From Mobula hypostoma (taxonomy: Eukaryota), in assembly GCF_963921235.1 (NCBI RefSeq), contig NC_086108.1, positions 77,750,001 through 77,814,000 on the forward strand: 64,000 bases of DNA, written 5' to 3'. The position numbers were made by a program, and so were the translations under genes. A model generated the notes under the pieces. That model saw only the letters and a list, made by a program, of their open reading frames with translations, was not told the origin of the DNA and made no database searches. Below are positions 3,715 through 56,073 of the stretch, one piece after another (positions within the stretch are counted from its first letter, which is position 1; every line of letters starts with the position of its first letter).

Positions 3715-4842
3715 GGTATTGGGGTAAGGTATTGGTGTGGGTGGAGAATTGGTTAGCAGACAGGAAGCAAAGAGTGGGAATAAACGGGACCTTTTCAGAA
3801 TGGCAGGCGGTGACTAGTGGGGTACCGCAAGGCTCAGTGCTGGGACCCCAGTTGTTTACAATATATATTAATGACTTGGATGAGGGAATTAAATGCAGCA
3901 TCTCCAAGTTTGCGGATGACACGAAGCTGGGTGGCAGTGTTAGCAGTGAGGAGGATGCTAAGAGGATGCAGGGTGACTTGGATAGGTTGGGTGAGTGGGC
4001 AAACTCGTGGCAGATGCAATTTAATGTGGATAAATGTGAAGTTATCCACTTTGGTGGCAAAAATAGGAAAACAGATTATTATCTGAATGGTGGCCGATTA
4101 GGAAAAGGGGAGGTGCAACGAGACCTGGGTGTCATTATACACCAGTCATTGAAAGTGGGCATGCAGGTACAGCAGGCGGTGAAAAAGGCGAACGGTATGC
4201 TGGCATTTATAGCGAGAGGATTCGAGTACAGGAGCAGGGAGGTACTACTGCAGTTGTACAAGGCCTTGGTGAGACCACACCTGGAGTATTGTGTGCAGTT
4301 TTGGTCCCCTAATCTGAGGAAAGACATCTTTGCCATAGAGGGAGTACAAAGAAGGTTCACCAGATTGATTCCTGGGATGGCAGGTCTTTCATATGAAGAA
4401 AGACTGGATGAACTGGGCTTGTACTCGTTGGAATTTAGAAGATTGAGGGGGGATCTGATTGAAACGTATAAGATCCTAAAGGGATTGGACAGGCTAGATG
4501 CGGGAAGATTGTTCCCGATGTTGGGGAGGTCCAGAACGAGGGGTCACAGTTTGAGGATAGAGGGGAAGCCTTTTAGGACCGAGATTAGGAAAAACTTCTT
4601 CACACAGAGAGTGGTGAATCTGTGGAATTCTCTGCCACAGCAAACTGTTGAGGCCAGTTCATTAGCTATGTTTAAAAGGAAGTTAGATATGGCCCTTGTG
4701 GCTACAGGGATCAGGGGGTATGGAGGGAAGGCTGGGTTCTGAGTTGGATGATCAGCCATGATCATAATAAATGGCGGTGCAGGCTCGAAGGGCCGAATGG
4801 CCTACTCCTGCACCTATTTTCTATGTTTCTATGTTTCTATGT
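3715..4842 (+). mobile_element. Young 5'-truncated CR1 (HER1-like) LINE
   Basis: Open ORF2 C-terminal part with RT motifs SGVPQGSVLGP, FADDTKL and LVRPHLEYCVQFW; 3' tail (TTCTATGT)n at 4819-4842. Confidence 0.95.
3732..4742 (+). CDS. CR1 ORF2 reverse transcriptase, C-terminal 336 aa (truncated retroelement ORF, not a host gene)
   Basis: Uninterrupted frame in the ORF track with the RT FADD motif; no endonuclease or N-terminal RT because the copy is 5'-truncated. Confidence 0.85.
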   Translation: MVWVENWLADRKQRVGINGTFSEWQAVTSGVPQGSVLGPQLFTIYINDLDEGIKCSISKFADDTKLGGSVSSEEDAKRMQGDLDRLGEWANSWQMQFNVDKCEVIHFGGKNRKTDYYLNGGRLGKGEVQRDLGVIIHQSLKVGMQVQQAVKKANGMLAFIARGFEYRSREVLLQLYKALVRPHLEYCVQFWSPNLRKDIFAIEGVQRRFTRLIPGMAGLSYEERLDELGLYSLEFRRLRGDLIETYKILKGLDRLDAGRLFPMLGRSRTRGHSLRIEGKPFRTEIRKNFFTQRVVNLWNSLPQQTVEASSLAMFKRKLDMALVATGIRGYGGKAGF

Positions 4843-17391: not shown

Positions 17392-17521
17392 ATGAAAAAA
17401 TCTGTGGACGCTGGAAATCCAAGCAACACACACAAATTCTGAAGGAGCTCAGCAGGCCAGGCATCATCTTTGGAAAAGAGTAAACAGTCAACATTTTGGG
17501 CTGAGACCCTTCAGCAGGACT
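17392..17521 (-). mobile_element. Penelope-like pseudo-LTR 3' end remnant
   Basis: Reverse complement resembles 30483-30612 (gtcctgctgaagggtctcagcccaaaatgttgactg...gatgcctggcctgctgag); hammerhead core degenerate. Confidence 0.75.
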
Positions 17522-20203: not shown

Positions 20204-21133
20204 TTCAAAATGGCGCTAGCGAATAATGCAGCCAACATGCAAGATGCTGCCGACAGTTCATAAAATATGATTCTACTACTAAGCCGCGCTTCTTTGGAAC
20301 TTGTGATTTACAGTTTGATGTGTGTTTTTGAGCTGATTCTGCGATCTGGCACTTTGTTCTCTCTGAAGGGGTTCAGTGAGGTTGAACACGGATTGTGCAC
20401 CTGGAGGCCTGGAAGCATGCACGCAGGGTGCAAGCCCATGATCAATTCCATTGCTTCCCTCGAATTGAGGCATTGGGCAATACTGAAGTCAATGAAGATG
20501 AGACCGGTGGACGGGCGGGTGTTCGGCGCCATCTGCCTGTGCTTGACCAGTTTTCCTCTCTCATTCGCTAGCTGCTGTCGGTGGAAAGTGCAGGAGTCTT
20601 GGGTTCCTCGTTGCCAAGATTGATAGGCAAGGGTCACAGCTGTGGGCTTGTTTTGGGGACCTTAAGGTTTATGTTACTTGCGCTTCAGGATTTTGGTTAC
20701 TTTTTTATTGCTGTTTTTGAGTGGTTTGATCGAGGTGATCAGTGAGGACCGGGGCGCTTACGTGAAGACTTGTCTCGATGGTCTGCAGTCGGCCAGCGGC
20801 ACCGAACTGAAAATCTGCAGGTGTTGGAAATTCAAAGCAACACCCACAAAATGCTGGAGGAACTCAGCAGGTCAGGCAGCATCTATGCAGGCAAAGACGC
20901 AGTCTCAATGTTTCAGGATGAAGCCCTTCTTCAGGACTCCTGGCTTGATGCTGATGTTCACTCCCATTTCGTTGTTTGCACAATTTGTTCTTTTTTGATA
21001 TGTTGGGTGTTTGATGTTTTTTCTACGAATGGGTTCCACGGTGTTTCTTTGTTTCTGGCTGCCTGCAGGAGGGCAAATCTCAGATTGGTATTCTGTATAA
21101 GTACTTCGATAATAAATGTACTTTGAACTTTGA
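20204..21133 (+). mobile_element. Non-autonomous Rex1-tailed element carrying a Penelope pLTR-end insert (~20810-20940, -)
   Basis: Starts AAAATGGCG (20207-20215) with a CpG-containing 5' half and ends in the same (TTTGAAC) tail as the Rex1 at 15033; insert 'aaatctgcagg..caaaatgctggaggaactcagcagg..cccttcttcaggac'. Confidence 0.65.
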
Positions 21134-27657: not shown

Positions 27658-30612
27658 GCATGAACTTCGGATTGCCTCTGCCATTGATCTCGCCGGCTCC
27701 AACAACTCAGGGCATATTCAAAACCCGGACTCCAGCAACGACCATGGACACCTTCAAAGCGATTGCGAAACCACCAACTGCGACTCCAGCCTTGAACTCC
27801 AGGCCGGGTCTTTATGTGCTGCTATTGTGACTCCCGTCTCCCCTTCCCCCACCAATACTCTGCAATCCTTTCTCCCTCAGATCCCATCGTCAGCTCCTGG
27901 GTGCCCAGAGGCTCCATCTTCCTCTCACCCCAACCCTCCCCTCTCCACTGACACCCCCAGCCTCCCCCCTCCCCCCTCTGATCCCAGCTCTCATCCGTGC
28001 CGGGTTTTTACCATCCCCTCTGACCTTCAACTGTCAGAGGCAGAACGCTCTGTCCTCAGTAAGGGCCTCACCTTTGTCCCCCTTCGCCCACACCTCAGCA
28101 AGTTCCGTGTTCGCCATAATGAGGAACTTTTCTTCTGCCGTCTCCGTCTCCGAGCCTACTTCTTCGGCAAGGACTCTCTCACCCCCACCGATGATACCCT
28201 TCTCCTGTCTTCAACCCTCCTCTTCTTCATGGACACCCCGCTCTGGTCTTCTGCCTGCTCTGGATCTCTTTATTGCTAACTGCCGATGGGACATCAACCG
28301 TCTCGACTTCACCGCACCTTGTTCCCATTCCAACCTCACTCCTTCCGAACGCTCTGCTCTCCACTCCCTCCGCACTGATCCTAACTTTACTATTAAACCC
28401 GCCGATAAGGGGGGTGCTGTTGTAGTCTGGCGTACTGACCTCTACCTTGCCAAGGCACAGCGACAACTTGCGGATACCTCCTCTTATTTACCCCTCGATC
28501 GTGACCCCACTAAGGAGCACCAGGCCATTGTCTTCCACACCATCACCGACTTTATCCGCTCAGGGGATCTCCCATCCACTGCTACCAACCTTATAGTTCC
28601 CACACCTCGCACTTCTCGTTTCTACCTCCGACCCAAGATCCACAAACCTGCCTGTCCTGGCCGACCTATTGTCTCAGCTTGCTCCTGCCCCACCGAACTC
28701 GTTTCTGCATACCTCGACACGGTTTTATCCCCCCTTGTTCAATCCCTTCCTACCTATGTTCATGACACTTCTCACGCTCTTTAACTTTTCGATGATTTTA
28801 AGTTCCCTGGCTCCCACCGCTTTATTTTCACCATGGATATCCAGTCCCTATATACTTCCATCCCCCATCAGGAAGGTCTCAAAGCTCTCTGCTTCTTTTT
28901 GGATTCCAGGCCTAATCAGTTCCCCTCTACTACCACTCTGCTCCGTCTAGTGGAATTAGTCCTTACTCTTAATAATTTCTCCTTTGGCTCCTCCCACTTC
29001 CTCCAAACTAAAGGTGTAGCTATGGGCACCTGCATGGGTCCTAGCTATGCCTGCCTTTTTGTTGGCTTTGTGGAACAATCTATGTTCCGTACGTATTCTG
29101 GTATCTGTCCCCCACTTTTCCTTCGCTACACCGACGACTGCATTGGCGCTACTTCCTGCACACATGCTAAGCTCGTTGACTTTATTAACTTTGCCTCCAA
29201 CTTTCACCCTGCCCTCAAATTTACCTGGTCCATTTCCGACACCTCTCTCCCCTTTCTAGACCTTTCTGTCTCTATCTCTGGAGACAGCTTATCTACTGAT
29301 GTCTACTATAAGCCTATTGACTATCATAGCTATCTGGACTATTCCTCTTCTCACCCTGTCGCTTGCAAAAATGCCATCCCCTTCTCGCAATTCCTCCGTC
29401 TCTGCCGCATCTGTTCTCAGGATGAGGCTTTTCATTCCAGGACGAGGGAGATGTCCTCCTTTTTTAAAGAAAGGGGCTTCCCTTCTTCCACCATCAACTC
29501 TGCTCTCAAACGCATCTCCCCCATTTCACGCACATCTGGTCTCACTCCATCCTCCTGCCACCCCACTAGGAATAGGGCTCCCCTGGTCCTCACCTACCAC
29601 CCCACCAGCCTCCGGGTCCAACATATTATTCTCCGTAACTTCCGCCACCTCCAACGGGATCCCACCACTAAGCACATCTTTCCCTCCCCCACCCCTCTGC
29701 TTTCCACAGTGATTGCTCCCTATGTGACTCCCTTGTCTATTCGTCCCCCCCATCCCTCCCCACTGATCTCCCTCCTGGCACTTATCCTTGTAAGCGGAAC
29801 AAGTGCTACACATGTCCTTACACTTCCTCCCTCACCACCATTCAGGGCCCCAGACAGTCCTTCCAGGTGAGGCGACACTTCACCTGTGAGTTGGCTGGGG
29901 TGATATACTGCGTCCGGTGCTCCCGATGTGGCCTTCTATATATTGGCGAGACCCGACGCAGACTGGGAGACCGCTTTGCTGAACACCTACGCTCTGTCCG
30001 CCAGAGAAAGCAGGATCTCCCAGTGGCCACACATTTTAATTGCACATCCCATTCCCATTCTGACATGTCTATCCACTGCCTCCTCTACTGTAAAGATGAA
30101 GCCATACTCAGGTTGGAGGAAAAACCCCTTATATTCCGTCTGGGTAGCCTCCAACCTGATGGCATGAACATTGACTTCTCTAACTTCCGCTAATGCTCCA
30201 CCTCCCCCTCATACCCCACCCATTATTTATTTTAATACACACATTGTTTCTCTCACTGTCCTTTTTCTCCCTCTGTCCCCTTGACTATACCCCTTGCCCA
30301 TCCTCTGGGTTCCCCCCCCTTTTCTCCCTGGGCCTCCTGTCCCATGATCCTCTCATATCCCCTTTTGCCAATCACCTGTCCAGCTCTTGGCTCTATCCCT
30401 CCCCCTCCTGTCTTCTCCTATCATTTTGGATCTCCCCCTCCCCCTCCAGCTTTCAAATCCCTTACTCACTCTTCCTTCAGTTAGTCCTGACGAAGGGTCT
30501 CGGCCTGAAACGTCGACTGTACCTCTTCCTACAGATGCTGCCTGGCCTGTTGCATTCACCAGCAACTTTGATGTGTGTTGCTTGAATTTCCAGCATCTGC
30601 AGAATTCCTGTT
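27658..30612 (+). mobile_element. Penelope-like element (RT + GIY-YIG), 5'-truncated, with 3' pseudo-LTR and 10-bp TSD
   Basis: LSKGLTF, IKPADKGGAVVV, PKIHK..GRPIVS, MDIQSLYTSIP, GVAMG, RYTDD, VIYCVRCSRCGLLYIGET; gattgaaagt at 27648-27657 and 30613-30622; frameshifted. Confidence 0.95.
30483..30518 (+). ncRNA. Minimal type I hammerhead ribozyme motif in PLE pseudo-LTR
   Basis: agtc-CTGACGA-agg(gtctcgg)cct-GAAA-cGTC-gact: stem I agtc/gact, both core boxes, GUC site, palindromic ACGT in place of stem III. Confidence 0.75.
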
Positions 30613-31271
30613 GATTGAAAGTTTCAATTATTTTATATCAAGTAAATCAGATTTCCAGTGATTCTATTAGTCTAAGGATTATTTTATAGTCCTTTCTTGT
30701 TACCAGTAGTAATGCTCAGCCAATATTAAATTGTACTTACATGTTTCTTTTAGTCTTTTTATTTCAAAAATAGACTAAATTCAGAAAAAAATATACAAGT
30801 ATTACAAGGCCAAACAGTACATTAATTTCCTGACTTTCATAGTTTTACTGTGTCTAAACATTTTTTTGTTAAAATTCTTGCAGTGTTGGGCACCATTGTC
30901 ACCTATCTAGCCACGTTGAACAATATACGTTTCAAGTGCTTGAGAGGCTTTTCCACGGGACTCAGCCCTCACAATCCAGAGCAGTCCTTCCCCACAAAAC
31001 CTTTACATTGGCTACATCAGCTTTCAGTGTGTCTCCTAGCATACACTTCTGCAGCATGGAATGTGCGAAATGACAATAATCCCTTAAGGACGTTGTGCTG
31101 TACTTGGAAGACCAAGAGGTTTTGGGTGGATGAAACAGCATATTTCACTTAGTTAATGATCTTCTAGCAGCACTTGATATTTGTCTTTTAATTAATTATT
31201 CTGCTGCTGTCACATCAAGGAAGCCAAGAGCAGCAACACTGAATGGAGTTCTTCATTAATCCATACATACA

Positions 31272-35333: not shown

Positions 35334-38231
35334 TAATATACAGAAATCAATGTGAAAAACAACAAAAATATGCTGAATTAAAAGAGGAAATTAAAAGACT
35401 ATGGAACATGAATAGAGTATACATCGTCCCAGTAGTAAGATCCACAACTGGTATCATTCCAAGTCACTACACAATAGCATTAAACAAATAGGCTTACACA
35501 GCAATATTTATGTAAATCTCTAGAAAGCTACAATATTAATCACCACCAGAGTAATCTGCAAGTTCCTTGCATTTGAGAAATAGAATACTTAGCTATATTT
35601 GTACCTCAGGTTTTACCAGCTTGAGCTGAGAAAAAAATAACGAAATGATAACAACAAGTTATTTATAGAGAACTTTTCATACCAACAATGTCATTCAAAG
35701 TGCTTTATAATGGGATAAAGTGCAAATATGAAATTGAATTAGAATATAAAAATAAAAATAAATATGAAAATAAAAGACAAAAAGAAGATAATTAAAAGCA
35801 AAGTTAAAAAGCAAATAAGCAGTTTTAGATCTGGCATTTACAAGTGTCAACTGAGTCTGCATCACATATAGTTTTGAATTCCACAGATTTGGAACATAGT
35901 TCAAAAAAGCCGACCTGCCAATTACCTTTTGAAGGAAATCATTTAAATTTAAGAGACCAGCAGAAAGAGACCTGAGAGCTCGAGCAAGATTATGAAACAA
36001 AAACAATTCTGTGATGTTCTCTGGTCCCAGACCATTGAGAGCTTTAAAAACAAGTAAGAGAACTTCAAAATGAATTCTAAAAGATACAGGAAGCCAATGC
36101 AGGGTAGCAAGTATGAGAGTGATATGCTCCCTCATCATGGTTTTAGTTAAAAGTCTAGTAGTGGCATTCTGAATGAGTTGAAGTTTAGCAGTAGATTGAT
36201 TTGGAATGCCAGTAATCTAGTCTATTCGATATAAAGGCGTGAATTAGTTTTTCAGCATCATTACATGACAGACATATTTCTTAAGTGTAGAAATGCATCC
36301 CTGGTCACTGTCATTATGTGGGATTTAAAATTCAAATCTGAATCAAGGATAACACCCAGGCTAGTTACTTCTGATTTTACAAGGGGAGCCAAGTTCCCAA
36401 GTTAATCAAGAAGTTTATCTCTTTTGGGTTTGGGACCAACCAAAAGCATTTCAATTTTATCTTCATTTAGTTTTAGGAAATTATTGTTCACCTATTTGTC
36501 TATTGTAGCTATACCAGAAATCAGAGAAGGTAGAGTGTTATCATCATCAGGGTCAACCGAGATATACAATTGTGTATCATCTGCATAAATGTGGAAATCA
36601 AGATTACTCTCTCTAATGATGTCTCCTAAAGGGAACATGAATATGGACAAGAGTAGGGGACCAAGACAGCTTCCTCAGGCAACACCAAAATGTACCTTGA
36701 ATCTCTTAGAAAATTGGTCTCCAAGACATACAAAATACTTTCTCTCTAAGGCATATGAATGAAACCAATTAAGGGCACTACCAGAGAGGACAACCTATTT
36801 CTCAAGACAATCTTGGAAAATGTTGTGGCAGTTGTGTCGAAGGTAGCACTTAGATGCAAAAGAATTAGAACTGAGACTCTGTCGGCACACGTGCTGAGCC
36901 TAAGGATACTGACAATTTTGTTACGGGCTGTTTTCATGCTGTGGCTTGCTCCAAAATCTGAAATTTTCCAATATATTGTTCTCATTCTGAAAGTTGTTGA
37001 GTTGGTTGAAAATGACTTTCTCAGGAATCTTGCCCAGAAGTAAGTAATCCATTTTGAGTGCTGTGGGGAGGGGGGGACAACCTACCTGGGGGAAGCAAAA
37101 GAGAAACATAGTTGGTAGTTCGCCTCCAAGGTGCCAGGGTCCACTATATTTCTGAACGTATCCACAATATCCTAAAAAGGAAGGGTAGGCAGCCAGAAGT
37201 TGTCGGACATATTGGTACCCATGACACCAGTAGAAAAAGGTAGAAGGTCCTGAAAACAGAGTACAAGGAGTTTGGAAGGAAGCTAAAAAGCAGGACCACA
37301 AGGTTACTAATATTGGGAATGCTGCCTGTGCCACGTGACAGTGAGGATACGAACAGAATGAGGAGGTGGATAAATGCTTGACTGAAGATTTGGAGCAGGG
37401 GAGAAGGATTCAGATTTCTGGCTAATTGTGACCTCTTCTGGGGCAGGTGTGACCTGTACAAAATGGACGGATTACACTTCAATCCAAGAGGGACCAATAT
37501 TCTTGCAGGCAGGTTTACTAGGGCTGTCGGGAGTGGTTTCAAATAATATGGCGAGGGGGTGGGAACCAGTATGATAGAACTCAGGATGAGCCAGTAGGCC
37601 TACACGTAGATGATGGATATAACGTGAATGTAAGGAAGGACAAGATGATGATTGGGTTCAAATACAGACAGAGCAAAGAGTTAAATTTTACCACGGAGGC
37701 AAAATTCAAAAGGGTGAAGAATGCAGGACTGAAGGTGCTGTATTTAAATTCACATAGCATTCAGAAAAAGGTGGATGCGCTCATAGTACAATTGGAGATT
37801 GGTCAGTATGATCTTGTGGGCATCACTGGCTCATGGCTGAAAGAAGGCCATAGTCGGGAGCTCAATATCAAAGGATATACTTTGTATCAAAAGGACAGGC
37901 AGTAACGCATAGACGGTGGTGTGGCTCTGTTGGTAAACGATGGAATTACATCTCTAGAAAGATGTGACCTAGGGACAGATGTTGAATCTTTGTGGGTGGA
38001 GTTCAGAAACTGCAAGGGTAACAAAAAAAATTATGAAAATCATATATAGGCCTCCAAATAGTAGCCAAGATGAAGGGTTGAGATTGCAAAGAGAGCTGGA
38101 AAAGGCATGTAATAAGGGAAATGATACAATTGTAATGAGGGACTTCAATATGCAGGGGGATTGGGAAAATCAGACTGGTGTTGGATCATAAGAGAGAGAA
38201 TTTGTTGAATGCCTACAAGATAGTTTTTTTA

Positions 38232-38440
38232 GTAACACACACAAAATGCTAGAGGAACTCAGCAGGCCAGGCAGCATTTAGGAAAAGAGTACAGTCAAAG
38301 TTTGGGACACTTGCTGAAGGGTTTCAGCCCACAACTTTGACTGTACTCTTTTCCCAGATGCTACCTGGCCTGCTGAGTTCCTCCAGTATTTTGTGTGTGT
38401 TGCTCAGATTTCCAACATCTGCAGATTTTCTCTTGTTTGT
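38232..38440. mobile_element. Hairpin mini-element made of two inverted Penelope pLTR ends
   Basis: Arms ~38234-38302 and ~38333-38401 are reverse complements; the extra tail is on the right only; degenerate duplication agatagttttttt / agatggcttttt on the flanks. Confidence 0.8.
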
Positions 38441-43341: not shown

Positions 43342-46103
43342 TTTTTTATGGACGTAGCTGGGACCTTGATGGAAAGTTTTGCATCTCTTTTTTAGTCACA
43401 GATAGTCATAGTCATAGTCATAGTCATTGTCATACTTTATTGAACCAATTTCCCCTGGGATCAATAAAGTATGACATAGAAACATAGAAACATAGAAAAT
43501 AGGTGCAGGAGTAGGCCATTCGGCCCTTCGAGCCTGCACCGCCATTTATTATGATCATGGCTGATCATCCAACTCAGAACCCCGCCCCAGCCTTCCCTCC
43601 ATACCCCCTGACCCCCGTAGCCACAAGGGCCATATCTAACTCCCTCTTAAATATAGCCAATGAACTGGCCTCAACAGTTTCCTGTGGCAGAGAATTCCAC
43701 AGATTCACCACTCTCTGTGTGAAGAAGTTTTTCCTAATCTCAGTCCTAAAAGGCTTCCCCTCTATCCTCAAACTGTGACCCCTCGTTCTGGACTTCCCCA
43801 ACATCAGGAACAATCTTCCTGCATCTAGCCTGTCCAATCCCCTTAGGATCTTATACGTTTCAATCAGATCCCCCCTCAATCTTCTAAATTCCAACGAGTA
43901 CAAGCCCAATTCATCCAGTCTTTCTTCATATGAAAGTCCTGCCATCCCAGGAATCAATCTGGTGAACCTTCTTTGTACTCCCTCTATGGCAAAGATGTCT
44001 TTCCTCAGATTAGGGGACCAAAACTGCACACAATACTCCAGGTGTGGTCTCACCAAGGCCTTGTACAACTGCAGTAGTACCTCCCTGCTCCTGTACTCGA
44101 ATCCTCTCGCTATAAATGCCAGCATACCATTTGCCTTTTTCACCGCCTGCTGTACTTGCATGCCCACTTTCAATGACTGGTGTATAATGACACCCAGGTC
44201 TCATTGCACCTCCCCTTTTCCTAATCGGCCACCATTCAGATAATAATCTGTTTTCCTATTTTTGCCACCAAAGTGGATAACTTCATATTTATCCACATTA
44301 AATTGCATCTGCCATGAATTTGCCCACTCACCCAACCTATCCAAGTCACCCTGCATCCTCTTAGCATCCTCCTCACTGCTAACACTGCCACCCAGCTTCG
44401 TGTCATCCGCAAACTTGGAGATGTTGTATTTAATTCCCTCATCCAAGTCATTAATATATATTGTAAACAACTGGGATCCCAGCACTGAGCCTTGCGGTAC
44501 CCCACTAGTCACCGCCTGCCATTCTGAAAAGGTCCCGGTTATTCCCACTCTTTGCTTCCTGTCTGCTAACCAATTCTCCACCCACACCAATACCTTACCC
44601 CCAATACCGTGTGCTTTAAGTTTGCACACTAATCTCCTGTGTGGGACCTTGTCAAAAGCCTTTTGAAAATCCAAATATACCACATCCACTGGTTCTCCCC
44701 TATCCACTCTACTAGTTACATCCTCAAAAAATTCTATGAGATTCGTCAGACATGATTTTCCTTTCACAAATCCATGCTGACTTTGTCCGATCATTTCACC
44801 GCTTTCCAAATGTGCTGTTATCACATCCTTGATAACTGACTCCAGCAGTTTCCCCACCACCGACGTTAGGCTAACCGGTCTATAATTCCCCGGTTTCTCT
44901 CTCCCTCCTTTTTTAAAAAGTGGGGTTACGTTAGCCACCCTCCAATCCTCAGGAACTAGTCCAGAATCTAACGAGTTTTGAAAAATTATCACTAATGCAT
45001 CCACTATTTCTTGGGCTACTTCTTTAAGCACTCTAGGATGCAGACCATCTGGCCCTAGGGATTTATCTGCCTTCAATCCCTTCAATTTACCTAACATCAC
45101 TTCCCTACTAACATGTATTTCGCTCAGTTCCTCCATCTCACTGGACCCTCTGTCCCTTACTATTTCTGGAAGATTATTTATGTCCTCCTTAGTGAAGACA
45201 GAACCAAAGTAATTATTCAATTGGTCTGCCATGTCCTTGCTCCCCATAATCAATTCGCCTGTTTCTGTCTGCAGGGGACCTACATTTGTCTTTACCAGTC
45301 TTTTCCTTTTTACTTATCTATAAAAGCTTTTACAGTCCGTTTTTATGTTCCCTGCCAGTTTTCTCTCATAATCTTTTTTCCCCTTCCTAATTAAGCCCTT
45401 TGTCCTCCTCTGCTGAACTCTGAATTTCTCCCAGTCCTCAGGTGAGCCACTTTCTCTGGCTAATTTGTATGCTTCTTCTTTGGAATTGATACTATCCCTA
45501 ATTTCTCTTGTCAGCCACGGTGCACTACCTTCCTTGATTTATTCTTTTGCCAAACTGGGATGAACAATTGTTGTAGTTCATCCATGCAACCTTTAAATGC
45601 TTGCCATTGCATATCCACCGTCAATCCTTTAAGTGTCATTTGCCAGTCTATCTTAGCTAATTCACGTCTCATACCTTCAAAGTCACCCCTCTTTAAGTTC
45701 AGAATTAACTATGTCACTCTCCATCTTAATGAAGAATTCCACCATATTATGGTCACTCTTACCCAAGGGGCCTCTCACGACAAGATCGCTAATTAACCCT
45801 TCCTCATTGCTCAAAACCCAGTCCAGAATAGCCTGCTCTCTAGTCGGTTCCTCAACATGTTGGTTCAAAAAACCATCCTGCATACATTCCAAGAAATCCT
45901 CTTCCTCAGCACCTTTACCAATTTGGTTCACCCAGTCTACATGTAGATTGAAGTCACCCATTATAACTGCTGTTCCTTTATTGCACACATTTCTAATTTC
46001 CTGTTTCATACCATCTCCGACCTCACTATGACTATGACTATTTGTGGCTAAAAAAGAGATGCAAAACTCTCCATCAAGATCCCAGCTATGTTCATAAAAA
46101 AAA
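43342..46103. repeat. Interrupted palindrome: left arm 43342-43443; right arm 43461-43475 plus 46027-46103
   Basis: 46026-46101 is the reverse complement of 43342-43417 with ~6 mismatches; core gtcatactttattga / tcaataaagtatgac. Confidence 0.85.
43474..46026 (-). mobile_element. Young CR1 LINE (endonuclease C-terminus + RT), 5'-truncated; same family as 3715-4842
   Basis: ORFs 45683-46144 (IMGDFNL, SDHN), 44201-45253 and 43574-44173; CGA>TGA stop at 44201-44203; (TTCTATGT)n tail at 43474-43498. Confidence 0.95.
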
Positions 46104-47349
46104 ATCACTAAGTTGCAAAATTCTCCATCAGGGCCCCTTCCCACAGCGTTCTGGGGTCGATCTCTGTTAGCTTCGGTTTTATCAACCTATGTACATGCCA
46201 TCACACCCAAAATTTTTTCCTTCTTAATACAGATCTGCTCCAGATTATACACACATCCCTCTCTGAATTCATTACCTTCCATGTCCTTCCATTTGGTGAA
46301 TACTAATGAAAAGTATTAAATTAGGGGCCCAACCACATCACCTGGCTCCATACATTCTAGAGATTACCCGTTTGGTCCCTGAGGAAACCCAGCCTTTCTT
46401 TCGTTCCTGATATAGAATGTCTTGGGATTCCCCGTAATCTCACCTGCTAAGGGTATTTCGCAGCCCCTTTTTCTGTCATACTAGTTCATACCATAAATTC
46501 TCTCCTGCTTACTCGATATTCCTTCGTGACGATAGTTGCCTTTATTTGTCAATTTTTTCCTTTTATTCCATTATCAAAACTTTAATATCCTTTGTAATCC
46601 AAGGCTCCCTTCCCTAATCTTACCATCTTTTCCACATGTGCCGGAACTGAAGTCTTACTAACTCTGTTTTAAAAGGCTCACACTTGTCTGCCATTGCTTT
46701 ATCTTCAAGCATGTGTTCCCAATCCAGTTTTGCCACGTTCTCTCTTATGTTATTGAAATTCAAGATCTTAAGTTGCGGAGAGCATTATCCCTTTCCATAA
46801 CCACCTTTAAACTTATATAAATATGGACACTTTTCCCACGGCATTCCCATTGACCTCCCTCCACCTGACCAATTTCATTTCTTCATCTCTAGCAAGACTC
46901 TGTATACACTCAGTAATCACCTTATTAGATACCTCCTGCATCTAATAAAGTGGCCACTGAGTGTACGTTTGTGGTCATCTGCTGCTGTAGCCCATCCACT
47001 TCAACATGTTGTACAGAGATGCTCTTCCACACACCACTGTTGTAATGCGTGGTTACTTAAATTACTGCTTCCTTCCTGTCGGCTTCAACTAGTCTAGTCA
47101 TTCTCCTCTGACCTCTCTCATTAACAAGAAATTTTTACCCACAGAACTGCTACTCACTGGATCTTTTTTGTTTTTCACACCATTCTCTGTAAATTCTACA
47201 GGCTGTTTGTGAAAATCTTAAGAGATCAGCTGTTTCTGAAATACTCAAACTACCCTGTCAGGCAACAACAATCATTGCATGATCAAAGTTACTTAGATCA
47301 CATTTCTTCCCCATTCTTACATTTGGTCTGAACCACAACTGGACCTCTT

Positions 47350-49800
47350 TTTTTTATTTTAATATAATTTTTATTGAGTTTTCAAAGTAAATACATGAGA
47401 AAATAATATCTACCCTCCCCCCTCCCCTTAACCCTCCCCACCCCCCGATATATACTCCTACCTAAGAAAAAAGAAAAAAAGAAATAAAAAGGAACCGTCT
47501 GAATATTGGAAGGTTTGCACATGCTCCATGGGATTAAAAATAAATTTTATATATATTTGTTACTTTCCCCAAGGAAACAAGATCTTTATCATCGGAGCTG
47601 TAAATAAGGGCTCCAAATATTCAAAAATGTTTCGTATTTATCTCTTAAAATCTAAAACATTACTTAGCTTCTCGACTCTCATAGTTCCCTGGGGAATCTC
47701 TTCGAACTTCACCATGTTGCTATGTGTTTCCCTCCCAATCATCCAGGCAAAAAGAAAAAAAAAGGTAGATAAGATACAAAAAAAGAAAAAACAAAATACC
47801 CCCCTACTAATGTTGTGAATGAAAAGGTACACAACACTACCCCCCTCCATTGTGCGGGTCATGGCTATTGCCACACTTGCACACATGAATAACGTAGCGA
47901 TTGGTCAGTGTTTCTTCCAGCTCCCCGGTAACAAAAAATTGTATATATATAACAAAAAAATTAATATCATCATTCCCAGCTAATATTCCTCAAATTTTAA
48001 CCTTTCTTCCCCTCCCTCATATAATTCATAATATATTTATATATTCATCCGCCTAAAAATCCAACAGGCCTAATCCTTGATCCAGTCTTCAACTTCAATC
48101 CATCTCGTTCCCCTAGGTTTGTTCTTGTATCTGGTGAATATTCAAAGAATCTCACACAACCTCCATCTATAGGAAGAGGCGCAGTCAACGTTTCAGGCCG
48201 AGACCCTTCGTCAGGACTAACTGAAGGAAGAGTGAGTAAGGGATTTGAAAGCTGGAGGGGGAGGGGGAGATGCAAAATGATAGGAGAAGACAGGAGGGGG
48301 AGGGATAGAGCCGAGAGCTGGACAGGTGATAGGCAAAAGGGGATACGAGAGGATCATGGGACAGGAGGTCCGGGAAGAAAGACAAGGTGGGGGGGGGTGA
48401 CCCAGAGGATGGGCAAGAGGTATATTCAGAGGGACAGAGGGAGAAAAAGGAGAGTGAGAGAAAGAATGTGCGCCTCTTCCTATAGATGCTGCTTGGCCTG
48501 CTGCGTTCACCAGCAACTTTGATGTGTGTTGCTTGAATTTCCAGCATCTGCAGAATTCCTGTTGTTCACACAAACTCCTCCGCTTTCTGGTAATCATCAA
48601 AAAATGTTTTTTCTCCATCAGCCAAAAAAATCTTCAAGGTTGCAGGATAACGCAATATAAATTGATAACCGTGATCCCATAGGGCTTTTTTCACTGGATT
48701 AAATTTCTTCCTTCTCTTCAAAAGTTCATAACTTATATCAGGGTAGAAAAAAATTTTCTTCCCTTCTATCATCAGTGGCCCTTTTCTCTTCTTGGCAGCT
48801 TGGACAGCCGCCTGTAGAATCCTTTCTTTGTCTTGAAATCTTAAGAATTTTATGAAAATTGATCATGGATATTGGTCATCTTGTGGTTTTGGTCTTAGAG
48901 CTCTATGTACCCGTTCAATTTCAATTGATCGGTCTTCCTCCTTCATTTGCAAGATTTTCGGAATCCATTTTTGAAAAAATTCTATTGAATTATCTCTCTC
49001 TATACCTTCTTTAAGACCAACAATTTTAATATTATTAAGTCTACTAAAATTTTCCAACACGTCCACTTTCTCCAAGAGTCAATTTCTTTCCGTGTTCCAG
49101 ACAATCACATCATTTTCTGTTTTTTCCACTCTATCGTTAATATGCTCCATTGTTCTTTCCATCTTCTGAAGTTTCTTATCCATTTTATCCTGTCTTTTCA
49201 TAGCTTTATCATAGCACATTCTCACGTCTCTAAGCTCTGTTCTTAATTTTCTTAGTTCAGCCGTTAATTGCAATAAAGCCTCTCTTATGTCTCCGTCATC
49301 TCCTTTACTTCCAGTCTCTTCCAGTTCTTCCTCCTCTTCTTCATCTGTATTCTCTGCGGTATCCAATTCTGACTCTGAGTCACTTTCAGTTGCAGTGGCC
49401 GTCGGTCCTTGTAGTTTAAGTTGTGTCGATTTGTGCGTGCGTACTTCTTTGCGCATGCGCATTTCTGGCATTTTCTTCCGAGAGACCACTACCGCCGCCA
49501 TTGCTCCCTGTTCTTCTATGCCAGAGATAAAATGCATCTCCTCCAAAGGAGATCCAACCTGAATCCAAGGCTCCATCGCTGCAGTAGGCCCTTTTTTCTT
49601 CCCATCTCGCGGCGACTTCACAACAACAGACTTCTTCTGTTGCGGTTTACGAGGCATATCGTAGAGTAGTCTTATGAAGTTTATAAGTAGTTTTCGGAAA
49701 GTATTTATTAACTTTACTTTGTTTAAACGGTACTTTGCTGATTTTTTACGGGAGAGCTGGAATTACACGTCTCAATCCCACGTCATCACGTGACGCCCCC
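47350..49800 (-). mobile_element. L1-clade element retaining 5' UTR, ORF1, 3' UTR and poly(A) but lacking ORF2 (HAL1-like); 15-bp TSD
   Basis: 5' end gggggcgtcacgtgatgacg; ORF1 pieces 49079-49657, 48863-49075, 48566-48772 (coiled coil; ENFSRLNNIKIVGLKEG, IERVHR, FYPDIS); AATAAA plus poly(A) at 47348-47375; acaactggacctctt at 47335-47349 and 49801-49815. Confidence 0.88.
48165..48565. mobile_element. Penelope pseudo-LTR insertion with inverted 3' end, nested at the end of L1 ORF1
   Basis: Minus-strand copy of ~30240-30537 followed by the plus-strand 3' end; short IR atctataggaagaggcgca / tgcgcctcttcctatagat; tcacacaa(c/a)ctcc duplicated on the flanks; hammerhead motif at 48183-48218 (-) with GUU site. 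Confidence 0.88.
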
Positions 49801-50324
49801 ACAACTGGACCTCTTGACCACATCTGCATGCTTTTATGCATTCAGTTGCTGCCACGTGATTGGCTGATTGCATTACTGAGCAGGTGTACAGGTGTACCTA
49901 ATAAAGTAGCCACTGAGTGTATAGGTAATGAGTTTCAGCTATATTGTGACATAACAGTATTCACTTCATTTAAATTTGTCTTCTTCCCTTAGTCTTTCAA
50001 TGTGCATGCATTCACATTGAAAATTTTAGGTAATTTCCAAAGAAATTACCCCACAAGTAAACCCAATATTGTTCCTGCCAGAATGTGGTTGAATTAGAAA
50101 CCCCACCTCAAAAATACACATTTAGTGTTAAACAATTTTGCATGTTGCTTTACTTCCTAAATATCAATGACCTATGAAGCAGAACCAACATATGTTGTAA
50201 ATATGAAATAAGAACAGAAAATGCCAAAATATTCATCTGCTTAGGCAGCAAATCTGGAGAAAGAAACAATAAGACCTTTGATATTATATATTAGCTGCTG
50301 TCATCTCACATTTGGGAAGCTGAA

Positions 50325-53424: not shown

Positions 53425-56073
53425 CACTCATAACACGCTGGAGGAACTCAGCAGGTCGGGCAGCATCCATGGCAAAGATCGGTCGACGTTTCGGGCTGGA
53501 ACCCTTCGTCAGGACTGTAGGGGGAAGGGGCAGAGGCCCTATAAAGAAGGTGGGGGGAGAGTGGGAAGGAGAAGGCAGGTAGGTTCCAGGTGAAGAACCA
53601 GTAAGGGGAAAGATAAAGGGGTGGGGGAGGGGAGGCAGGGAGGTGATAGGCAGGAAAGATGAAGAAGGAATAGGGGAAAACACAATGGGTAGCAGAAGGA
53701 GGCAGAACCATGAGGGAGGTGATAGGCAGCTGGGGGAGGGGGCAGAGTGACATAGGGATAGGGGAAGGGAGGGGGAGGGATTTACCGGAAGTTGGAGAAT
53801 TCTATGTTCATACCAAGAGGCTGGAGACTACCTAGACGGTATATGAGGTGTTGCTCCTCCAACCTGAGTTTAGCCTCATCATGGCAGTAGAGGAGGCCAT
53901 GTATGGACATATCTGAATGGGAGTGGGAAGCAGAGTTGAAGTGGGTGGCTACTGGGAGATCCTGTCTGTTTTGGCGTACGGAGCGGAGGTGCTCGACGAA
54001 GCGGTCCCCCAATCTGTGTCGGGTCTCACCGATGTAGAGGAGGCCGCACCAGGAGCACCGGATGCAATAGATGACCCCAACAGACTCACAAGTGAAGTGT
54101 TGCCTCACTTGGAAGTACTGTTTGGGGCCCTGAATGGTGGCAAGAGAGGAGGTGTAGGGACAGCTGTAGCACTTGCGCTTACAGGGATAAGTGCCAGGTG
54201 GGAGATCCGTGGGGAGGGACGTGTGGACCAGGGAGTCGCGGAGGGACCGATCCCTGCGGAAGGCGGAGAGGGGTGGAGAGGGAAAGATGTGCTTAGTGGT
54301 GGGGTCCTGTTGAAGGTGGCGGAAGTTGCGGAGGATAATGTGTTGGATCCGGAGGCTAATGGGGTGGTAGGTGAGGACAAGGGAAACTCTGTCCCTGTTG
54401 TGGTGGCGGGAGGATGGGGCGAGAGCCGAAGTGTGGAAAATGGAGGAGATGCGGGTGAGGGCATCATTGATGACAGCAGAAGGGAAACCACGATCCTTAA
54501 AGAAAGAGGACATTTGAGATGTCCTGGAACGGAAAGCCTCATCCTGGGAGCAGATGCGGCGGAGACGGAGGAACTAGGAATAGGGAATGGCATTTTTGCA
54601 TGTGGTGGGGTGGGAAGAGGTATAGTCAAGGTAGTTATGAGAGTCAGTGGGCTTGTAGAAGATGTCAGTGGACAGTCTGTCTCCAGAGATGGAGACCGAG
54701 AGATCGAGAAAGGGGAGAGAAGTGTCCGAGATAGACCAAGTGAATTTGAGGGCTGGGTGGAAGTTAGAAGTAAAGTTGATGAAATTGACAAGCTCAGCAT
54801 GGGTGCAGGAAGCAGCACCAATGTAGTCGACAATGTACCGAAGGAGAAGTTGGGGAGCAGTACCAGAATAGGTTTGGAGCACAGACTGTTCCACATAACC
54901 AACGAAGAGGGCCTATGCCAGTTCCCATAGCTACACCCTTGGTCTGAAGAAAGTGGGAAGAGCCAAAAGAGAAGCTATTGAGTGTGAGAACCAAGTCCGC
55001 CAACTGGAGGAGGGTAGTGGTGGTGGGGAACTGGTGAGGTCTATCATCCAGAAAGTAGTGGAGGGCTTTGAGGCCTTCTTCATGGGGAATGGAGGTGTAT
55101 AGGATTGGACATCCATAGTGAAAATGAAGCGGTTGGGACTGGGGAACTGGAAGTTATTGAAGAGGTGGAGAGCATGGGATGTATCCCGGATGTAGGTGGG
55201 GAGAGACTGAACTATGGGTAACAAAATGGAGTCCAGGTAGGCAGATACAAGTTTGGTGGGACAGGAGCAGGCAGAAACTATGGGTCTGCCGGGATAGTCA
55301 GGCTTGTGGATCTTGGGGAGGAGGTAAAACCGAGCGGTACGGGGTGTGGGAATTATGAGTTTAGTGGCTGAGGATGGAAGGCCTTCAGAGTTGATAAGGG
55401 CGGTGATGGTACGGGAGACAATGGTTTGATGTTTTTTGGTGGGGTCCTGTTCCAGGGGTAAGTAAGAGGAGCTGTCAGAGAGCTGCCGCCAAAACAGACA
55501 GGATCTCCCAGTAGCCACCCACTTCAACTCTGCTTCCCGCATTCAGATATGTCCATACATGGCCTCCTCTACTGCCATGATGAGGCTAAACTCAGGTTGG
55601 AGGAGCAACACCTCATATACTGTCTAGGTAGTCTCCAGCCCCTTGGTATGAACATAGAATTCTCCAACTTCTGGTAATTCCCTCCCCCTCCCTTCCCCTA
55701 TCCCTATGTCCCCTCTGCCCCCTCCCCCAGCTCCCTGCCACCTCCCTCTTGGTTCCGCCTCCTTCTACTACCAATTGTGTTTTCCCCTATTCTTTCTTCA
55801 CCTTTCCTGCCTATCACCTCCCTGCCTCCACTCCCCCATCCCTTTATCTTTTCCCTTACTGGTTCTTCACCTGGAACCTACCAGCCTTCTCCTTCCCACC
55901 CTCCCCCCGCCTTCTTTATAGGGCCTCTGCCCCTTCCCCCTACAGTCCTGAGGAAGGGTTCCGGCCCGAAACGGCGACCGATCTTTTCCATGGATGCTGC
56001 CCAACCTGCTGAGTTCCTCCAGCGTGTTGTGAGTGTTGCTTCGACCCCAGCATCTGCAGATTATTTTGTGTTT
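53425..56073 (-). mobile_element. Penelope-like element (second subfamily) with inverted pseudo-LTR; 13-bp TSD
   Basis: Minus-strand PKIHK..GRPIVS, MDVQS, GVAMG, VIYCIRCSWCGLLYIGET; ~550-bp inverted arms 53425-53976 and 55487-56037; aatatttcgggaa at 53412-53424 and 56074-56086. Confidence 0.95.
53481..53517 (-). ncRNA. Minimal type I hammerhead ribozyme motif
   Basis: gtc-CTGACGA-agggttccagccc-GAAA-cGTC-gac; the partner in the other arm (55944-55979 +) has GGC instead of GUC. Confidence 0.7.

Follow-up and report, generated by a model that had tools for sequence, protein, structure and literature searches.

Half-L1 elements of mammals (HAL1) were reportedly described by Smit in 1999 and by Bao and Jurka in 2010, and the latter are said to have found HAL1 ORF1 under selection while the family spread. 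Such elements are a natural test of the cis requirements of L1 RNA. If ORF1 is needed from the same RNA whereas ORF2p may come from another element, any genome with an active L1 should be open to parasites that carry ORF1 alone.

According to the accessible portions of the sources cited here, HAL1 arose several times independently (PMC5753468), and its short length lets copies keep their promoter (PMC8535693). A scheme in which ORF1p serves its own RNA while ORF2p is borrowed is given for HAL1 as well as for HeT-A and Ag-Sponge (PMC5786205, PMC5753468, PMC8535693), and the ORF1p of the latter two is proposed to multimerize with the proteins of the partner (PMC5786205). The L1 elements of fish have a 5'UTR of 165 ± 42 nt (113 to 267), a spacer of 536 ± 132 nt (311 to 730) and a 3'UTR of 167 to 2157 nt, and the function of their long spacer is left open (PMC5381506).

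The window, the 64-kb stretch of Mobula hypostoma DNA analysed here, contains an L1 copy that lacks ORF2. The evidence favors its being a dead full-length copy of a HAL1-like nonautonomous L1 family of myliobatiform rays, a reading that we hold to be likely though well short of certain. It shares with HAL1 its derivation from L1, the presence of ORF1 alone, the retention of both ends, an A tail and a target duplication (HAL1 as portrayed in the accessible text of PMC5753468, PMC5786205, PMC8535693 and PMC4859970). In contrast to HAL1, it belongs to a cartilaginous fish, has a separate origin and stems from a fish-type L1 with a 141-nt 5'UTR and a long spacer; it retains the parent's spacer, last ORF2 codons and 3'UTR, and is known here from one locus plus contigs. 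It is a real ORF2-less L1 and probably a separately arisen ray counterpart of HAL1.

HeT-A (Jockey clade) and Ag-Sponge (CR1 clade) likewise consist of 5' and 3' LINE parts joined by an internal deletion with ORF1 kept, as far as the available text of PMC5786205 describes them, but both belong to other clades and HeT-A is telomere-bound, whereas the ray case is an L1 in a MITE. The 5'UTR, spacer and 3'UTR of the ray element fall within the fish L1 ranges, and its 2,035 nt plus a 3.77-kb ORF2 equal the fish L1 mean of 5.8 kb; unlike fish L1, it is without ORF2, and its ORF1 of 1,149 nt exceeds the fish range of 780 to 1,059 nt (accessible part of PMC5381506). Our literature search, with Repbase, Dfam and most subscription papers beyond its scope, found no ORF1-only L1 outside mammals and no such ray L1. 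The ray HAL1 lineage, if true, would be the first outside mammals in the literature searched. A ray family with a surviving parent and a base-exact break would make the cis requirement testable across a long divergence, the span involved being 400 million years. Were the deletion a single event, this would be an unremarkable locus.

Structure and insertion history of the element

Public sequencing runs were compared with positions 47325-48163 of the window (839 bases, free of the nested insert described below). Four runs were examined: two of contigs, X1 from organism A and X5 from organism B, and two of raw reads, X21 and X22.

The L1 lies on the minus strand and is two-ended. It spans 2,449 bp, of which the nested insert accounts for 414 bp, leaving 2,035 bp net, in agreement with the ~2.05 kb estimated in the original prediction. 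From 5' to 3', the features are as follows.

49799..49815, minus strand: 5' copy of the target duplication, 17 bp, or 15 bp if two G are assigned to the element; one of an identical pair
49658..49798, minus strand: 5'UTR, 141 nt, with a G-rich start and CACGTG and TGACGT words
48566..49657, minus strand: L1 ORF1 codons 1 to 364, dead, with TGA at codons 193, 265 and 364 and no frameshift
48165..48565, no strand assigned: nested repeat, 401 bp, with its own target duplication and a 91 to 96% copy at 30240-30613
48095..48151, minus strand: ORF1 tail, codons 365 to 382 and the true stop, to which the C-terminus of P0002/P0004 aligns
47650..48094, minus strand: inter-ORF spacer, 445 nt kept of about 467
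47649..47650, minus strand: deletion junction, at which the spacer has lost its final 21 nt and ORF2 almost its entire length; loose ends on both sides, bridged by one contig (record 9)
47599..47649, minus strand: C-terminal remnant of ORF2, LRDKYETFLNIWSPYL plus part of one codon, in frame with PLEKITY of the parent
47598..47599, minus strand: second deletion, 24 nt, which took away the final 6 codons of ORF2 together with its true stop; loose ends in both contig runs
47356..47598, minus strand: 3'UTR, 243 nt, with a T tract (47463-47494), a G tract (47412-47446) and AATAAA (47370-47375)
47350..47355, minus strand: short A tail of 6 A, read from the sequence
47333..47349, minus strand: 3' copy of the target duplication, identical to the 5' copy
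46903..49923, no strand assigned: host element of 555 bp, inverted-repeat and TA-bounded, split by the L1, from the repeat analysis

The marks of an L1 insertion are all present: a 17-bp target duplication, a 6-A tail and a bottom-strand cut context of TCTT/GA, which fits the L1 endonuclease consensus YYYY/RR and is among its listed variants (accessible part of PMC4859970). The direct repeat flanking the element (47333-47349 and 49799-49815, a 100% identical pair) is exact, as had been predicted, while its length is 17 bp and comes to the predicted 15 bp only if two G are given to the element. The G-rich 5' end, the spacer and AATAAA are likewise as predicted; the predicted poly(A) exists, but amounts to the 6 A of the tail, adjoined by the 2 A that open the target duplication. 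From its sequence, we infer an internal promoter in the 5'UTR. No second copy of the L1 part was found within the 64-kb window.

The G tract at 47412-47446, at which the family has depth in both contig runs, distinguishes the 3'UTR of the ray element from that of fish L1. A conserved poly-G tract of the 3'UTR has been called mammal-specific (accessible text of PMC5381506).

The host element has 30-nt inverted arms and TA ends, from which we label it a putative Tc1/mariner-like MITE. Since the L1 sits in the MITE and the nested insert sits in the L1, the order of insertion was MITE, L1, nested insert. One end of the MITE (46902-46968) folds as a hairpin with a sub-threshold Rfam match to mir-9256 (34.8 bits against a gathering threshold of 80), which probably reflects a MITE-derived model or chance.

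The nested insertion recognized in the original prediction was borne out, with its limits at 48165-48565 and its 91 to 96% copy elsewhere in the window. Its target duplication is exact over 8 bp (48152-48159 and 48566-48573) and extends to 13 bp if one mismatch is allowed, and three X5 contigs without the insert pass from 48159 directly into ORF1. We take the nested repeat to be putatively Penelope-like, the label given in the original prediction as well. It has an inverted two-part build, and shorter relatives lie at 17398-17521, 20805-20938, 38231-38437, 53482-53781 and 55944-56060.

A dead ORF1 with ray relatives

ORF1 starts with the ATG at 49657 and stays in one continuous frame as far as 48569, codons 193 and 265 being TGA. 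Codon 364 is TGA in both copies of the target duplication of the nested insert; therefore, ORF1 was most simply dead before that insert arrived. The tail carries TAG at codon 377, private to the window copy (78 to 81% of contig depth has a sense codon at 48115), and ends with the true stop at 48095-48097, giving 382 codons in all. The near-complete ORF1 that had been predicted is present, but four in-frame stops take the place of the predicted frameshift. In the alignment, the three TGA stand opposite arginine in P0002, and these putative arginine-to-TGA changes are as CpG decay would give.

Pfam Tnp_22_dsRBD matches ORF1 at 22.6 bits (cutoff, 22.2), and a profile of 14 ORF1 relatives matches the human L1 ORF1p structures 2YKO/2YKP with an E value of 1.3e-13. 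Judged by its sequence, the ORF1 product is an L1 ORF1p. The search for relatives gave 15 matches among 2555 candidates, the nearest from Mobula hypostoma, followed by Hemitrygon, Hypanus and Narcine. Within Mobula hypostoma, P0003 matches at 88% over 65% of the query and P0002 at 74% over the whole query. P0002 is an intact 367-aa ORF1p of the same lineage, matched by 4073 representatives at E 0.001, and it cannot be tied to either the joined (ORF2-less) or the uncut L1 form. Descent from mammalian L1 was considered and ruled out, since the nearest ORF1p are ray proteins (74 to 88%); the origin is separate.

None of 143 stretches of viral contigs held an ORF1 relative, and the one hit among 331 stretches of metagenome contigs, at 28% identity, was set aside. 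Among 4083 candidates, no gene model of the ORF1-ORF2 kind (a longer protein with this ORF1p) was found. The placement in the L1 clade rather than in Tx1 rests on the ORF1 type, AATAAA and the A tail, because the element is without a reverse transcriptase and none was retrieved for the parent.

The ORF2 remnant and the deletion breaks

There is no ORF2 between the spacer and 47649. What follows is probably the end of ORF2, to judge from its open frame and its likeness to such an end. The original prediction had put this remnant at about 19 C-terminal codons; it exists, but 16 whole codons plus part of a 17th are left (47648-47599). It has no Pfam match, and a search for the parent ORF2 by this C-terminal remnant returned no candidate.

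Contigs of the uncut parent reveal what adjoined the two sides of the break. Upstream of the remnant, at 47649, they continue with PLEKITY, in frame with LRDKY (three X1 and four X5 contigs), and downstream of the spacer they continue with 21 nt and then an ATG opening M-T-N (four X1 contigs). To judge from these three codons and their position, M-T-N is the probable start of ORF2. The ATG at 47660, previously proposed for this role, reads M-F-stop and lies in the spacer, the parent ATG standing 21 nt past the break. The main deletion has an inferred size of about 3.7 kb, with 1 base shared at the break. A second loss concerns the very end of the frame: other copies carry 24 additional nt at 47598/47599, which close it with IGWHI-stop. 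The LR-stop that had been read as the end of ORF2 is 3'UTR read-through, because the 24-nt deletion removed the true end. The uncut form is seen on both sides of the break in X1 and on one side in X5, and represents a putative autonomous partner in the same lineage.

The joined form in public sequencing runs

Words of the element were present in 20 of the 24 runs listed, under four organism labels; runs guessed to be RNA hold 0.20 to 0.34 of them. Over the 839 bases, 2104 contigs of X1 and 1396 of X5 match, which show a many-copy L1 family in organisms A and B. From the raw-read runs X21 and X22, only 7 and 5 reads matched, all of low complexity, and the family was not seen in those organisms. 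The window copy diverges by 2.5 to 4.8% from the family majority, and at least 19 of the 40 places listed differ from the window in at least 75% of the depth in both runs. Three of the 15 rows of loose ends listed (of 206) sit at 47649. Loose-end contigs number 3 to 4 at the junction and 3 to 5 at the 24-nt site; given these similar counts, uncut copies are common.

Among the 16 of 3501 records listed, one spans the break. This contig, X5 record 9, has 242 nt and a depth of 72.4 and covers 47602-47840 at 91% identity, with 17 other letters, 5 gap letters, and 48 and 191 letters on either side of the break. If the distance column reports the best contig, record 9 is gap-free across the break. 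Without gaps, the uncut sequence has 11 of 30 identities to the joined form at the break and therefore cannot pass for it. Through end distances of 33, 73, 102, 76 and 36, record 9 was matched to 47634, 47674, 47703, 47765 and 47805, and on the same condition it has the majority letter at all five testable window-private places (the sixth of the six such places is not testable). Record 9 thus pairs an identical break with mutations of its own, which argues against a junction confined to the window locus. From this contig, the joined form is likely to occur beyond that locus.

Relative to its neighbors, the junction bin has a depth of 0.81 in X5 and 0.35 in X1, against 0.25 expected with 31-mers if all copies were uncut; summed contig depth, on which these ratios are built, does not measure copy number and differs over tenfold from bin to bin. 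The ratio of mean spacer depth to 3' depth is 0.87 in X5 and 0.68 in X1. Such near parity suits a short form, because 5' truncation is expected to thin out a spacer that lies 4 kb away from the 3' end. The depth data suggest that the joined form is frequent in organism B. It is unproven in organism A, with no bridging contig among the X1 records listed. The single bridging record, which is without flank, offers no second target duplication or flank for the joined form, and a search of metagenome contigs, where rays are hardly to be expected, gave 0 matches to the junction pattern.

The original prediction had left the choice between a family and a one-off deletion. A family is favored, though not proven, by the uncut parent, the exact break and the one bridging contig. 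That a single autonomous L1 lost ORF2 during insertion (by a template jump) or later, the organism B contig representing the orthologous locus, we regard as unlikely. Just one record bridges the break, the X1 depth profile fits mostly uncut copies, and the window copy has also undergone the second, apparently minor deletion, so such losses happen. The orthology of record 9 is not directly readable, because the window's own locus is absent from the matching contigs of both runs (0 depth for its letter at five places in X1 and four in X5). However, an orthologue should share the mutations that predate the species split, and record 9 shares none of five private ones; the chance of this is 0.33 when the two copies had a fifth of their history since insertion in common, and 0.03 when they had half of it in common. 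Moreover, the depth of record 9 exceeds that of six of the seven other X5 records listed (27.2 to 59, and one of 103.7), and X5 depth has no dip at the junction.

Multiplication of the joined form at the DNA level, within the host MITE or a segmental duplication and not by retrotransposition, is improbable. Although the L1 sits between intact-looking terminal arms of the 555-bp element, depth drops from 44,059 and 96,314 to 747 and 1,127 at the bin of the A tail and flank, so next to no contig enters this flank; the test is a weak one, with 25 flank bases compared. That faulty assembly of the window or of the bridging contig produced the gap is very improbable: contigs of many-copy repeats can be chimeric paths, but two independent assemblies share a base-exact join at a site with one common letter, and an assembly path needs 31-letter words across the join. 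Retrotransposition of a spliced L1 RNA, with an intron-like loss of ORF2, would leave both ends and the target duplication intact, as found, but is hardly credible for a lost piece that starts with GG or TG and ends with AT or AA in the sense direction and is not GT-AG on the other strand either.

For the HAL1-like ray family that we prefer, the following course may be proposed. A deletion of about 3.7 kb would have struck a master L1, beginning 21 nt ahead of the ORF2 start and ending 23 codons short of the ORF2 stop; the retained 2-kb remainder comprises the 5' end, ORF1, spacer, 3'UTR and poly(A) signal. The shortened element would be transcribed from its own 5' end, its ORF1p would coat the resulting RNA, and the uncut parent would lend the ORF2p that copies this RNA by target-primed reverse transcription, priming on the A tail. 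The window copy landed in the MITE, drifted, lost ORF1 to four stops and then received the nested insert.

Predicted pairing of the 5' end with the spacer

Two further features concern a possible RNA structure.

49741..49796, minus strand: 5' arm of an RNA duplex of 48 bp that is predicted to form with the spacer
47879..47939, minus strand: 3' arm of the duplex, resembling in inverted form the 56 nt that open the element

The predicted pairing of the first 56 nt with the spacer comprises 48 pairs, 5 of them G-U, at -59.1 kcal/mol; shuffled spacers give -35.4 ± 3.4 kcal/mol and 0 of 300 reach -59.1, statistics that are post hoc, the pair having been first found and then tested. Across the 5'UTR and ORF1 it is the strongest of 39 windows (z of -8.2, the next at -4.2, with 12 shuffles each). 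The duplex is predicted to be stronger on the sense RNA than on the antisense RNA (-59.1 versus -47.0), and the family majority letter at 47927 (93 to 96% of depth) restores one pair lost in the window copy. When the two arms are simply aligned as DNA, their similarity is weak, and 26 of 2000 shuffles score as high. The spacer folded alone is no better than its shuffles (z of +1.33), and its 88-aa frame has no Pfam match.

The pairing is probably also a trait of the uncut parent. The predicted duplex may reflect an RNA stem that encloses ORF1 at long range, a promoter copied in inverted orientation, or a relic. No such pairing was met for fish L1, the word "inverted" occurring 0 times in the main text, as available, of PMC5381506. 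The predicted pairing suggests a specific function for the long spacer that fish-type L1 elements have. A bolder proposal, which is doubtful at present, is that the ray HAL1 lineage is long-lived, with many copies in some species and ORF1 under selection, and that its first 56 nt fold onto the spacer and close ORF1 in a loop, as a cis signal for ORF1/ORF2 translation or particle assembly; this would explain why the spacer was kept when ORF2 was lost.

Other ray ORF1 proteins and repeats of the window

Outside the window, P0005, P0017 and P0018 (XP_072890665.1, XP_059827035.1 and XP_059827034.1) join the RING, B-box and coiled coil of a TRIM protein, in one frame, to a complete L1 ORF1p. These TRIM-ORF1p proteins are 95% identical between Hemitrygon akajei and Hypanus sabinus, and the arrangement recalls TRIMCyp. 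As read from gene models alone, this is a candidate fusion, on which nothing was found in the literature searched. ORF1 exons in host genes are treated in PMC12129022, in whose accessible part no stingray or TRIM gene is named. The ray ORF1p P0002, P0006 and P0007 occur in RefSeq models named as TADA1, ADAT1 and STXBP6 isoforms, and in P0006 a host N-terminus is joined to ORF1p. L1 exons in the gene models of ray hosts look common.

Two inverted repeat pairs were also observed in the window. One (28460-30210 and 53769-55489) is 77% identical; the other (3715-4842 and 43474-44608) is 97% identical and overlaps a 370-aa reverse-transcriptase-like frame at 44201-45313.
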